Shown: positions 1 through 6,000 of the stretch, in pieces
How positions within the stretch are numbered: position 1 is the first letter of the stretch
Layout of the letters: every line of letters starts with the position of its first letter
Source of the DNA: a virus
Taxonomy: Monodnaviria > Loebvirae > Hofneiviricota > Faserviricetes > Tubulavirales > Inoviridae
Direction: 5' to 3' (one strand)
Virus record (IMG/VR): IMGVR_UViG_2648501361_000001
DNA: 11,610 bases
Position numbers: made by a program

Positions 1-3000
1 TCAGCCTTTTATTTCAGTAATGCCGCCATCTGATGAAATGTTATAAGTTACTCCTTCCCTCCCCTCCATTGACCAGACGCGAACATATACAGGTATCTGG
101 ACTAACTTACCGATAAAATTATTTGCCTGATTCATTACACCGGCATTAACAAGAGCCTGAGATACACGAATAATAATCTGGTCTTGCTTAGTGCCACCAA
201 AACCATCAGGAATCTCTAAGCCAACACCAATTTCATTATAGTATCCCTGACCATTGACCTTATTACGCTGGCGAGCACCAAGCATTTTACCTTTTACAAA
301 AAGACCATAATTAGACATATCACTCTCCTTTAATGCCAGTTACTGGCATGTGAAATACGGTTATAATCGAAAATTAAACCTTTCTCATAAACCCATGATG
401 GAATTTTGGCTGGTTTGGCTTCAAGAGTACGAACCAACGGAACAACGTTATTAGAATCCGGTGACTCACAATAAAAGTTAATATCTATTCCGAAAGAAAG
501 TAATTCTTTACGGTGTCGGTAGAATGTAGGTTTCGGTAACATCTCTTTCATGTTCGCGCCCTGCTTCCACAATAAATATGTAGACTGTATTTTTCTTGGG
601 AGATTAATTATTTTTTCATCAGTTAATATGGTATTTTGATTCATTTCTATTCTCCCTACATAGTCAGAGAATAATTTATTGGGCGTCTCAATATTCCAGC
701 TATTACCAAGCGTAAGATTCAAATCAATTAATTCAGTTGTTCTTAATGTTAATTCAATGCGTAATTTATCTTTTGACCAGTCCAGTAAACCAGCTTTAAC
801 GAATTCGTCTGCCATCTGGTGCCCTTTTTTGCCAGATGTATGCTCATCATATTTTGAATAAAATTTCAGGCTCCAACGACGGGAGTTTTTCCCTAAGTAA
901 ACAGTGCCACCTTTACCACAGGCGCGACCGTGGCGAGTTTTAGCTTTAAATTCTGCGGCATATAACCATGCGCGGACATTTTCTAATGTTGACAATGAAT
1001 ACATGTAATTGATATCGATGCGCGAGATCTTAAATTGCCCTTCCATGACCTGCCGATAGGATGGTAGATCATGAGGAATATGCAGTAATGCCAATATTCT
1101 GGCGTAAGCTGTTAACACCAACCCTTGCAAATCGTCGGAACCGATAACAGAGTGACCTTGCAAAAACTTTGATGGATTACCGTCAATGTAGAGATGTGTT
1201 GCCCGACCTTCACCATCAGATCCAACAGACCTTACTTTCATTGTGGACTCATGCGAACCGCGAACTGTCAACCGTTTTACTGTTTCCCACTCCACTGCAC
1301 CGTCAGCATTGACGCTGACGACACTACCAGCCGGTAACGGTCGGTGTGTGCAAGGCAGGATTCCGGTAAACCAGTCGATCATAAGTAGTCACACCCATCA
1401 AAATATGTGTCAATAGTCATTTGTGAGCAGATTGAATGGTCACAATGTAATATGCTCAGATCTGACAGTCAATACATTTGCAATGTTTAAATTGTCAGAA
1501 ATGAGCATCAAATCTAACTATTGAAAAACCACTGTTAAGATGGAGCCAAGTAGATGGGCAACAATGAGCATGAAGTTATGGCGGACAAACAGAGAGCAGA
1601 ACGTATCAAAAAGGTAATTCTGGAACACTCGACTTATGAAGAACTGGCCGAGAAGACTGGCATTAGCGTGAGTACGCTGGTCAGGATAGCGTCCGGCAAA
1701 ACTGAACCTAAATTCAGTGACATCATTCAGATAGCTAAAATTACTGGTGCAGACTTAAACACCTTAGCTTATGGCTATGCTCTTGATGTTAAAGAAGAAG
1801 CTACCGAGCGGAAGCTAATCACTTCTGCGGATGGATATACTGATGAAGAAACCACTAACGCACATAATTTCATCGTGTGGAACATCAGGACACTGGAAAA
1901 ACAAGATATTCTGGCACTCGCAAGGCAGGTTTCTGCCTTAAGTTCATACACTTACAGTACTAAAATGTTTATGAAAAAAGCGGTGTCTGGAGAAGAGTAA
2001 AAGGATTAACAGTCTCAGGAATGAGACAAACGTGCAGTATTACCAACACTGCACGTTCTAGTTTGTGCAAAACTTAAACAAAAAGTAAGTCATCGAGATA
2101 AACAAAACGAGTCAAAGTATATACTGATGAATACGCCAAAAAAAAGTGAACAAAAACAGAATGATAAGCAACAAGGCTTTGCCCAAGATGGTTTGGACAC
2201 ATCTAAAGCAAAAAGGCTTTTAGAAAAAGCTCAACAATCCACTACTAAACCAACACAAGGAAAGTAATATGTTATCTTTTCAGGTTTTCCTTTTTAAAAA
2301 AGCATTAGAGGAAGAATTAGATATAATCAAATGGCATCCAACAAATGAACAATTGGAGGAGATGTTCAATGAGATAAAAAAACTCAGTGGCAATGAAAGC
2401 ATCACTGAAGTTGAAAATATCGTTCATCGAATTTACAAAAAACCGATTACAAGAATGATTTGTAATGGATTGAATACATCGAAAGCAAGTTCGCTATTGG
2501 CAAAAATTCAATCCCAGTCAAATAACACTCAACAAAAAAGATAGTGAAATCAGATATGGATGTTCACGGTATCATTGATAATCAAAAAAAAGAAATTGAG
2601 CGTTTATATGAAAAATATACTGAGTCATTAGAGTGTTACCTATCTGGTAAATGTGATTTTGATACCGTGAATTCATGTGGAGACAGTTTTTTCGGCTATT
2701 TAGAACACTGCGCTGCACATAACAGAACAGTAGATGAATTAAATAATACTCAATGGAATCAATGGCTTGCAGAAACATGCATTGATGTTCTTCACCTTAT
2801 CTTAGCTCATTACAAAAAATATAGAGAGGTAATGAATGATAATAGTATTAAACCAAGCTCCACTGCTTTTGCTTCAATGCAAAGGATAGTAAAAGCCCAT
2901 GACAAACGTTCTGCAAAAGAAATAAGGAATCTTTTCGTTAATGAAGATATGCCAGTATATGGATTTGACAATAAAGGAAAAGAAAAATTGACAAAAGCAC

Positions 3001-6000
3001 ACGAGAGAATAGCGGCATTTAGCTTTGGCATTTTACTTGTTATTCTTTTTATAATAATCGCAATATTTATACCTAATCCAACGAACTTTCAATACACTTT
3101 CTTTCGAATAATTCTTTCAGCAGCAGTTGCTGGGGTAGTCTCATTTATACCCGGGTTTATAGAAGTCAAAATATCAAACTGGGTAAGAGCAGGTGGAGCA
3201 TTAGCTGTATTTGTGATTGTCTATTACGTGGCTCCCGCAGCATTATGAATTGGTTCGCACAATGACGTTATGCTAAAGAGGCCGCTGCGGGATTCTATTT
3301 TCGCAGCGGCCTTTTCAACATAACGAGTCGTACATTATGCGCACCAATGGTAAGGATGGCAGAATCTGGCGGGAATCGTTGACACTGGCCGTCAACTGGC
3401 TACTATCGACAGTGATTCAAAATCATCCGTTTCTCCAAACGAATCAGAATCAAATGTCTGTCAGCAGTAAGTGAACGGCCTGACCTCACCAATCAGGCCT
3501 GTTCATCCAGTTAGTTGGTAAATCTGTACCTGATACACGAGAATCAAACACCACTTCTTCAGTGCCATCACCATGATGCCGGATAATCTGGTAACCGGAT
3601 TGCGGGTTCTGGCTCTCAGCTTCATAAGCAGCCCGGAATGCTGGATCTTTGAGAAGCATCACTTTCAGCTCCTGATGTGTCATGAATTTTTCCATGATAA
3701 GCCCCGATGAATGCTGCCGCGCCGAATCAGCCATAACGCTGAAAATGGAAACTGTACGGCTTGGCCAACCCCGGACAGCAACAAAACAAGTTTTGTCACT
3801 GACCGGCGTTATCTTTCAAAACAGACAGTTAACGATTTTTTGTCTGGTGTTTATGCGTGAAATTTCGTACGTACGAAATTCACCACCAATAAACAAACGG
3901 ACGATGACTGACCGGAAAAGCAATGCCGTCAGCATCATGACCACGCATTACCTGATTGAGAAGCCTTCTGACTTCACGGCGCTCAGGCCTGGTCATCATC
4001 ATATTGCGATACCAGGACGGCGATTTATCAAACCATCTGGCACAACTGGCAAAATGTGAACCTACACGACGATAAGACTTAAGGCGGCCACCGGGAAGTC
4101 GGTCACGCGCCTTATTTTTTACAGACATAATAAATCCTCTAAGTAACTGAATACCTAGAAGATGTCGTACTGTTCATACCCCATAAAAGTTAACGCCATA
4201 ATAAAAATCCATACAATCAGTTCAGGTTGTCCCGGAACAGTTCACCGCTCCTCGCGGCGCTGCGGGGCGTCGCCCTGCTCCGGTCAACCTTTCTGACCTG
4301 AAGCATCACCATAATATCAGTCTTGTTGCTTTCACTGGTACGGGAACCGAAGAAGCTCCAGCCGGAACTGGCCTTACTGTCTTTCTGTTCAGCAAGGCCA
4401 CCAAGTAAAATAATATCACCATCTGCAAGGCTGACTTCGGTTGTTACATCACGCTTGATAAGGGTTGGCGAGTTATTGACGCCGGTTTCAGTGGTCACAA
4501 AGTTGGAAAGCTGCTGCTGAATCTTGAGATCCATTGTCCGACTTTTGATTGATGGCGTTACGTTAAACAAAACACCGCTGGAACGATATTCAACGGATTG
4601 CGTGGTCGTATTGTTATTCACCGTAACACTGCCCAGTACTGGCACATCAGAGCCGACTGAAAAAGACGCTGAGGCATTATTTTTTACCCGCAGTCGTGGC
4701 GCACTGACAACAGTAAAACGACTGTCGGTTTTAAGCAGATTGAAAATGGCATCAATGGAGCCGGTTCGAATATTGATAAAATTATCCAGTCCGGCAGCAC
4801 CAACTGAAATATTGAATTTATCAGACAGAATTTTAGCCGCTAAAAGAATGCCGGAGCCGTCAGACTGCGAGGTCTGAACCTCAAAAACATAACCAGAAAC
4901 AACCACTTCATCACTCATCGTATCCAGCGAAGTGACCAGTGTTTTCAGGATGGCGATATCCTCTTTCGTACCATAATAAACCAGAATATCACCGGTTCGA
5001 TTGATGTAGTTGCTTGCCCCTGATGAACCTTTTAGCGAATCGTCAGAAATCACGGCTCCACTGTTATTGAAGGAGCCTGAAACGTAGCCGCCAAGAATAT
5101 CAGACAGGTAGGCAACAGAACGGTACTGAGGCGTATAAGTCCATGTATAACGTGGCTTAACCGGCTCTTTCGGCGTATAGGGCGCGATAAAATCAACACC
5201 CTTTTTCGTCCATATTCGAATGTTCATATTGCCAAGATAACGGGTTACAAATTCCCGTTCATCAATATCAGGTGTTAACCTGAATGTAATCATTCGTTCA
5301 TCATTAACAAGCTGTGGATCTAGCATATACGGGACTTTAAGCACCTCACTATAAATAAGAGAAATAGCCTCCGGTAGCTTGACTTTATTTAATTCAAGCT
5401 CTGACCCTGCGAAAGCACATGAAGAAAATAGTAGCGTTAATGCGAGTAAAATCTTTTTCATTATTTTTTCCCCGTATAAAGCGTCACACGCTCACCATCA
5501 ATAATTCCGCTCATCAACATCCCTTTGTAATTAAAACTGGATGCAGGAACGGCACGCAAAACACCGGCACCGTTAACAAGAATCACAAACGCCCTGCCTT
5601 CACTGGTCATTCTCCCTGATATACGCCACTCGGTTGAAAGTGGCGGTTCAGCTGGTTCTGAGGGAGTATCTGGTGCTGGAGTAGCAGCGGAAGAACGAAA
5701 CATGGCCGCATCACGTACATCTGTTGTAGCCAAATCTGGCGAGGGATCGCTTCGGCCAAACGTGCTGAAAAATGAGTAAATCAGCCAGCCTGACCCGATA
5801 AACATCAATGGAAAAAGCACAAGAAAGAACCTGACTTTGCCAGAATTCCAGATGCTCTGGCGTTTATCTGTCTGCTTTTCATTACCGTTATTTCCTTCAT
5901 AGCTTTTATAAAGTTCAAAAATATCAGGGTTATATTTATTGCGATAACTGGTGACGAGGTTGCTTTTATAGATTTTGTGGCCTGAATATACGTCAATGCA

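Follow-up and report, generated by a model that had tools for sequence, protein, structure and literature searches.

A mobile three-gene cargo cassette in a dif-integrated Escherichia coli inovirus is a candidate modular anti-phage system

RexA and RexB of phage lambda are encoded by prophage genes directly 3′ of the repressor gene and on the same strand, and pair a soluble part with a polytopic inner-membrane effector whose proposed action is depolarization. In the conflict systems CBASS and Pycsar, transmembrane (TM) pores and lipid hydrolases occur as alternative effectors. Here we describe a cassette of three genes that has features of both and is carried by a filamentous prophage of E. 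coli (IMG/VR virus record IMGVR_UViG_2648501361_000001, Inoviridae); the whole stretch of 11,610 nucleotides that was analyzed is referred to as the window. Variable accessory open reading frames (ORFs) beside dif and heterogeneous tandem arrays have been described for UPphi, CUS and Ypf phages (PMC7307601, PMC4266046), and the hypervariable regions of Vibrio CTX-type inoviruses are reported to be hotspots for anti-phage systems and toxins (PMC12715192). Xer-dependent inovirus cargo slots as defense hotspots are already known, as are membrane effectors in abortive infection, while the protein family found here, its small-protein partners and its conserved TM domain are uncharacterized in the libraries searched and in the literature that could be reached. 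The cassette is, with a probability that we put at about 0.55, an uncharacterized, horizontally mobile three-component system, most likely for anti-phage defense of the abortive infection (Abi) type, carried as lysogenic-conversion cargo by a dif-integrating inovirus. A first-pass annotation of the same DNA had proposed an accessory system not described before, akin to Abi, superinfection exclusion or toxins, and the comparative evidence given below favors that proposal.

Like lambda rex, the cassette follows the repressor gene on the repressor strand and combines soluble components with a putative polytopic membrane effector. It differs in having three genes, paralogous small proteins and a sensor-like domain fused to the TM module, and in being carried by a filamentous rather than a lambdoid phage; no homology to RexA or RexB was found in Pfam, PHROG or PADLOC, and there is no sequence or fold similarity to them. 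In position, between the replication/regulation module and attP and next to dif, it corresponds to the hypervariable region (pHVR) of CTX-type phages and the ctxAB slot of CTXphi (PMC12715192, PMC7307601, PMC4266046). The same position is held by h3-h5 in UPphi and by orf1/orf1a and YPO2271/2272 in CUS-1/YpfPhi, again with variable contents and heterogeneous arrays. The pHVR literature reports PARIS, restriction-modification, CBASS, Abi, OLD, toxins or unnamed ORFs, and neither the three-gene family nor its broader occurrence is described there. A small polytopic effector that is interchangeable with a lipid-directed hydrolase recalls CBASS, Pycsar, Thoeris-like TM effectors, and Rst_Hydrolase-3TM and Rst_2TM_1TM_TIR of the P2/P4 hotspots, and the presence of the family in both prophage hotspots and defense islands is likewise shared with the CBASS, Pycsar and Thoeris-like systems. 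Unlike CBASS, Pycsar and Thoeris, however, the operon lacks a cyclase, a CD-NTase, a TIR domain or another generator of a nucleotide signal, PADLOC gave no match to the families of these systems, and the partners are two novel small alpha/beta proteins.

Cassette genes and cargo slot

Three tightly packed ORFs lie on the + strand, which is the repressor strand and opposite to the structural genes, at positions 2127-2267, 2269-2544 and 2544-3248, as the first-pass annotation had described them. It had also called the operon more AT-rich than the phage, and the GC content is indeed 33.6% vs 42.2% in the rest of the phage unit. The first gene, for small protein A (46 amino acids [aa], 2127-2267), had been listed as a possible ORF only and is a real gene. 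Between E. coli and Dickeya its ratio of non-synonymous to synonymous substitution rates (dN/dS) is 0.077, with 16 synonymous and 10 non-synonymous changes, the two other reading frames are closed in E. coli and Dickeya alike, and the motif FAQDGLDTSKAKRLL is retained in Dickeya, Proteus and Cedecea. Small protein A is a paralogue of the 91-aa protein with a reduced N-terminal part, and only the C-terminal helix motif GLDTSKAKRLL is left in it. Its match to the 98-residue phrog_6875 is confined to positions 53-98, and full-length first-position paralogues of 84-96 aa are present in distant loci. The second gene (2269-2544) has a good Shine-Dalgarno sequence, AAGGAAAG, and encodes small protein B, a soluble alpha/beta protein of 91 aa (phrog_6502) with a W-x-P-T/S motif near the N-terminus and G-L-N-T-S-K-A-x2-LL near the C-terminus. 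Both small genes are under purifying selection (dN/dS 0.07-0.08), and all three cassette genes are real. The third (2544-3248, phrog_5814) encodes the large protein, of 234 aa if translation begins at GTG 2544. The overlap of stop and start codons (TAGTG) pointed out in the first-pass annotation is present, but RefSeq and the closest homologues start the protein at ATG 2556 ("MDVHGII"), which makes 230 aa the likelier length, and thus the overlap may be unused. None of the three PHROG families has an assigned function.

The repressor gene and the cassette are on the same strand and 126 nucleotides apart, with two hairpins between them, and a simple consensus scan found no intrinsic terminator in this interval. 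The repressor promoter probably supplies transcription of the cassette in the lysogen. At the other end of the operon, the strong hairpin, whose inner stem had been taken for a terminator, is there, but it is the attP of the phage, and the scan found no canonical intrinsic terminator; the attP hairpin may also terminate the cassette operon.

The window lies on the E. coli chromosome beside dif/hipA and carries tandem prophage copies of the CUS-1/YpfPhi type. It contains an exact direct repeat of 2059 bp (positions 1-2059 and 9089-11147), and the prophage copies part ways at 2060 (copy 1) and at 11148 (copy 2). Cassette "B" is thus delimited as a variable insert at 2060-3243 (+), since copy 2 diverges from 2060 onward and the sequence is conserved again in E. 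coli from ~3244. Its left border consists of two conserved hairpins at 2012-2027 and 2029-2057 (second copy at 11100-11145), formed by the final bases of the 2059-bp repeat. The stretch 2012-2057 folds at -23.9 kcal/mol (z -4.1), and the hairpin sequence, ...ACGTGCAGTATTACCAACACTGCACGTTCT, is common to CUS-type and UPphi-type inoviruses with three types of cargo downstream. These hairpins possibly serve as a signal for packaging or an origin, or else as a hotspot of recombination. On the right, the slot is bounded by the forked attP hairpin (3249-3348), which is also the junction of the tandem copies.

Between the regulatory module and the dif-like attP, the contents of this slot alternate among near-identical phages. 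Cargo A (140 aa and 369 aa) is present in UTI89, where the 369-aa ORF is followed by hipA, and in copy 2 of the window, where its start occupies the same slot at 11148-11610 (+) and encodes the 140-aa TM protein of phrog_4174. Cargo B (46, 91 and 230 aa) is found in two CUS-type copies in F11 and in a UPphi-type phage in BH100N, so that the identical cassette rides two inovirus backbones, CUS-type and UPphi-type. Cargo C (140, 155 and 123 aa) is found in the UPphi-type copy in F11. The array in the window is therefore a heterogeneous tandem prophage array with different cargo in each copy. The full cassette B was present in 22 of 5426 complete E. coli genomes, always at 100% identity, and most copies of the same phage lack it. 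With conserved borders on both sides, unrelated genes in other copies and the same cassette on two backbones, the earlier suggestion that the operon is separately acquired cargo is supported. A mosaic cargo (140, 98 and 262 aa) was observed on an IMG/VR inovirus contig (L041 7155-8801), where the 140-aa TM protein typical of cargo A and C is followed by a 98-aa small protein and then by a 262-aa homologue of the large protein, which shows that cargo modules recombine inside the slot.

Family, modularity and neighborhood

The large protein consists of an N-terminal helical bundle (residues ~5-158; 2556-3017, +), delimited by invariant residues and by helices in an AlphaFold2 model, and a C-terminal module with three TM helices (residues ~155-234; 3006-3245, +) that carries the motifs FG-x-x-F, P-N-P-T, Q-Y, PGF and AGGALAVF. 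The model, built from a 118-sequence alignment, has a mean confidence (pLDDT) of 88.5, with four long helices in the N-domain (7-33, 39-62, 70-97 and 110-133) and three in the TM module (151-175, 181-199 and 218-229); a conserved LPxYGF linker connects the bundle and the membrane segments. Hydropathy peaks centered near residues 167, 197 and 225 agree with the model, and the two to three C-terminal TM helices predicted earlier are three. By the positive-inside rule the N-domain is predicted to be cytoplasmic. We propose that it is a regulatory or sensor domain that partners the small proteins, and that the 3-TM module is the membrane effector. Invariant residues of the N-domain are W71, A76, E77, C79, L83, Q113, R114 and F141. 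The Cys/His cluster highlighted in the first-pass annotation (C-x5-C-x7-C...HCAAH) is literally present, but it varies even among enterobacterial orthologues, positions 31/37/45/55/56/59 are mostly A/S/S/E/F/N among the 118 homologues, and only C79 is conserved in these; a metal-binding Cys/His domain was rejected. The model of the 91-aa protein, built from a shallow alignment of nine sequences, has a pLDDT of 77.8 and the order helix-strand-helix-helix-strand-helix.

The expectation that no known family would be recognized was borne out. None of the three cassette proteins had a significant match in Pfam or NCBIfam, including any to the inovirus families in Pfam, to which neighboring genes do match (Zot, secretin, G2P and others). 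The 46-aa and 91-aa proteins had no match in PADLOC-DB v2.0.0, and the sole match of the large protein, to Csx27, is marginal (E 0.0057, 15 bits) and probably due to TM composition. A sequence-profile search of the PDB gave no significant match, and in Foldseek searches of the PDB with the AlphaFold2 models no E value was lower than 0.28 (large protein) or 2.3 (91-aa protein). A literature search by protein accession or PHROG identifier found nothing on the cassette proteins. Two names given by NCBI, "S-(hydroxymethyl)glutathione dehydrogenase" for the 91-aa protein (without Pfam or NCBIfam support) and "SH2 domain-containing protein" for the large homologue in Vibrio proteolyticus (P0104, without Pfam support), look like annotation artifacts.

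In a profile search of 1.84 billion cluster representatives, 2650 matched at 1e-3, 1539 at 1e-10 and 93 at 1e-30, so that ~2,650 clusters (50% identity) contain the N-domain, the TM module or both. The N-domain profile matched 221 proteins at E<=0.01, most of ~245-290 aa, from Vibrio, Aeromonas, Pseudomonas, Paraburkholderia, Microbulbifer, Marinomonas, Desulfobulbus, Actinomycetes and others. The module as a whole ranges over Proteobacteria, Actinomycetes, Acidobacteria and Campylobacterota and occurs in inoviruses and tailed phages; in IMG/VR, seven contigs contain it, including phage contigs of 36 kb and 62 kb. The operon, which the first-pass annotation had suggested seeking in other inovirus prophages and in defense islands, was found in both. 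An orthologous trio in Dickeya zeae (46/91/228 aa) is located at the end of an inovirus prophage, and another in Proteus mirabilis (50/91/231 aa), whose 50-aa gene was missed by annotation, is ~6 kb from dif. The dif-adjacent island of ~7 kb that holds the P. mirabilis trio (L005 3441-10696) has no inovirus genes and encodes, besides a 391-aa ORF, a PDC-S73/nSTAND3 protein with a TIR-like N-terminus. It has the look of an Xer-integrated element, either degraded or not of phage origin, in which defense-like cargo has been retained.

We surveyed 28 loci, 25 of them with a complete large gene. Small genes are directly 5′ of the large gene in all but one (L036) of the complete loci. There are one to three per locus, of ~82-96 aa, with four in Cedecea and a fusion of A and B in one Pseudomonas locus; counted over the 23 complete loci that are distant, 22 have one to four such genes. 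Two paralogous types of small protein can be distinguished, which have in common a C-terminal G-[LIV]-D-N-S-D-L-x2-LL-A-L-A and an N-terminal W/E-P-[TS]; across the module the C-terminal motif of the small paralogues reads G-x-D-N/T-S-D/K-x3-LL.

Each of the two domains of the large protein is also found with other partners. The TM module (85 residues) is 50-60% identical across many proteins that have unrelated domains before or after it, including DUF4019, CHAT, SPOR, an Ig-like domain and many unannotated domains. Conversely, in other proteins the N-domain is joined to a PGAP1/DUF676-like alpha/beta hydrolase (P0233, P0236) or to Lcl_C, which then replaces the TM module. In the hydrolase variant (L045 4533-6689), an 87-aa small protein with GLDNSDLNTLLALA is still encoded upstream, whereas none is found upstream of a TM-module protein that has another N-domain. 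The small proteins therefore track the N-domain, and the part C-terminal to it acts like an effector that can be exchanged. The 3-TM family has the consensus FGVxFV...PNPTxFQY...PGF...AGGALAVFV (proteins P0016-P0048 and P0241-P0303) and no Pfam match, and one example of a partner domain is an N-terminal "YVQAIPLY...DLPCLWLED" domain.

Known defense systems adjoin the module in 8 of the 25 loci. Within three genes of it are Gabija (upstream) and Shedu (SduA_C, downstream) in V. proteolyticus, ParE on a second contig with the V. proteolyticus large protein, Olokun (OloA/OloB) in Paraburkholderia, Gabija in two Pseudomonas loci, Hachiman (HamB) in P. sediminis, PifA in P. frederiksbergensis, a HEPN RiboL-PSP protein in a further locus (L010), PDC-S73/nSTAND3, and a phage integrase at a prophage end in Microbulbifer. 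The 136 nearest neighbors in the 25 loci include three GajA and three GajB proteins and two each of KAP NTPase, gop-beta-cII Beta protein, HEPN-Toprim, HEPN RiboL-PSP and integrase; an M78 peptidase is likewise recurrent. The module is thus associated with defense genes in the sense of Doron/Gao-type guilt by association, a qualitative enrichment in raw counts. A different context is seen in the P2-like phage NC_070905.1 (L047 4740-5702), where a small protein (85 aa, SVDNSDLNMLL) and a large one (233 aa) are encoded between the tail-fiber assembly gene and the sheath gene FI. In P2, this interval holds the lysogenic-conversion locus Z/fun, a T5-blocking moron. The proteins of the pair are different from Z/fun, and the comparison shows only that family members occupy well-known moron or defense slots elsewhere among phages.

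Proposed function and rival explanations

In the mechanism that we propose, lysogens would express the operon from the strand of the repressor gene, and the large protein would sit in the inner membrane by way of its 3-TM module with the helical bundle in the cytoplasm. The two small paralogues may bind the bundle, either holding the effector off or reporting a phage cue. Upon infection the complex would change state and the TM module would oligomerize or open, so that the membrane potential collapses and the cell dies or arrests before the phage cycle is completed. In relatives, a lipase-like alpha/beta hydrolase takes the place of the TM module, which suggests that both kinds of effector have the membrane as their target.

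A broader proposal, which we advance tentatively and at somewhat less than even odds, is that a new and widespread modular immune family has its first example in this trio. In such a family, a two-part sensor, made up of the small alpha/beta proteins with their G-x-D-N-S-D-L-x2-LL helix and of the W-x4-AE-x-C / MQR helical bundle, would gate interchangeable membrane-destroying effectors, and filamentous phages would spread the system among Enterobacteriaceae by way of the attP-adjacent slot. A chronic, non-lytic phage would in this way pay its host with protection from lytic phages. If defense is confirmed, the known systems would gain a large protein family that has no detectable relatives among them, together with a new sensor/effector grammar in which small paralogous adaptors and a helical bundle are combined with a membrane effector that can be swapped. 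The role of dif-integrating filamentous prophages as platforms for anti-phage cargo would then extend to clinically important lineages of extraintestinal pathogenic E. coli (ExPEC), which bears on phage therapy of E. coli and on the persistence of such prophages. As an uncharacterized membrane domain, the strongly conserved 3-TM module is worth a study of its own.

Several observations weigh against a defense function. The case for it is comparative and the phenotype is a predicted one; the cassette proteins have no homology to any validated defense protein, and no sigma-70 consensus promoter for the operon was found at 2000-2127. Many neighbors of the module are ordinary, and a recognized defense system lies within three genes in only about one-third of the loci. 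The TM module, at 50-60% identity in distant taxa, may not form a pore and could serve instead as a docking site or anchor for a conserved partner in the host. The periplasmic C-terminal domains (DUF3298, SPOR) found in some of the long variants hint at roles related to the envelope.

Among other explanations, a toxin-antitoxin or addiction module, in which a membrane toxin and labile small antitoxins guard the prophage or island against loss, is unlikely on present evidence though the strongest of those considered. Xer-integrated elements are easily excised, the module is found on mobile elements and plasmids, and ParE adjoins one locus, with HicB-like and HEPN genes near family members. As in type II toxin-antitoxin systems with membrane toxins, a membrane protein that could be toxic is encoded on mobile DNA and is translationally coupled to small upstream genes, whose stop codons overlap or abut the next start codon; the copy number of the small genes varies. 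However, the small proteins have no recognizable DNA-binding domain (helix-turn-helix [HTH], ribbon-helix-helix or AbrB) and no known antitoxin fold, one to four paralogous "antitoxins" together with an N-terminally reduced 46-aa copy would be atypical, and the toxin candidate carries a large conserved regulatory domain. Such a module would also be compatible with defense, because many toxin-antitoxin modules act as abortive-infection systems.

The inner-membrane location predicted for the large protein, encoded on the repressor strand of an inovirus, and the swapping of the cassette between CUS-type and UPphi-type phages that reside together in tandem arrays would also suit superinfection exclusion specific to inoviruses, or an envelope modification that blocks the receptor, TolQRA or DNA entry in the manner of PfsE of Pf. 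Most family members, however, are outside inoviruses, in defense islands, tailed prophages, P2-like phages, Actinomycetes and Acidobacteria, and the effector can be a cytoplasmic alpha/beta hydrolase. The system is not specific to inoviruses, which argues against a dedicated anti-inovirus role, and we consider this explanation improbable. We give still less credence to a host-fitness or virulence factor in the slot equivalent to that of ctxAB, for example one acting in ExPEC stress, envelope or colonization functions. The slot does correspond in position to ctxAB and to the YPO2280a/2281 accessory genes, the hosts are mostly human ExPEC isolates, and CUS-1 and YpfPhi have modest fitness effects in vivo (PMC4266046). 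Against this, the family is widespread in environmental bacteria and in metagenome-assembled genomes from soil, marine and sediment sources, the neighbors are mostly defense and mobile-element genes, and inspection of the small-protein sequences showed no evident secretion signal (no signal-peptide tool was run). An Abi/toxin-antitoxin-like defense system that acts through a membrane effector stays the preferred reading of the cassette.

The attP hairpin and other features of the array

The 2059-bp repeat encodes gV (the single-stranded DNA-binding protein), gII (replication) and the repressor, and ends in the two hairpins of the left slot border. The repressor (1554-2000, +) is a 148-aa cI-like protein with an HTH_3 domain (Pfam E 1.6e-9) and matches phrog_3557, a transcriptional regulator. 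The prophage unit from 2060 to 11147 is 9088 bp long and contains the operon, the dif-like site, two small ORFs, secretin, a Zot-like pI, pVI, pIII, pVIII, gV, gII and the repressor. As in CTXphi, regeneration of the phage genome by rolling-circle replication probably requires tandem copies. The window had no nucleotide match in the GenBank phage collection. The two small ORFs, of 82 aa each, are located between attP and the secretin gene on the strand of the structural genes, at 3486-3734 (-) and 3880-4128 (-). The former matches phrog_6642 and the latter has only a weak PHROG match; both are attL-side accessory genes of CUS-type phage.

The hairpin at 3249-3348 folds at -50.9 kcal/mol (z -7.8) and is an inverted repeat with an unpaired center. 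It is built from two inverted dif-like sites, one on the + strand at 3252-3279 (GGTTCGCACAA-TGACG-TTATGCTAAAG) and the other on the - strand at 3345-3312 (GGTGCGCATAA-TGTACGACTCG-TTATGTTGAAA), and is therefore the forked attP of the phage. The forked single-stranded attP of CTX-type phages has the same architecture, in which two inverted dif-like sites flank an unpaired center. In BH100N, a bona fide dif is present at the opposite end of the prophage. The inner 71 nucleotides of the hairpin (window 3251-3322) have copies of ~92% identity at ~475 plasmid places across E. coli genomes. One such copy (L037 3001-3071) is located directly 3′ of a gene for an "STM4504/CBY_0614 family protein" and beside an IS200 remnant, and these plasmid copies could be a relic of an Xer site, a terminator or a mobile hairpin.

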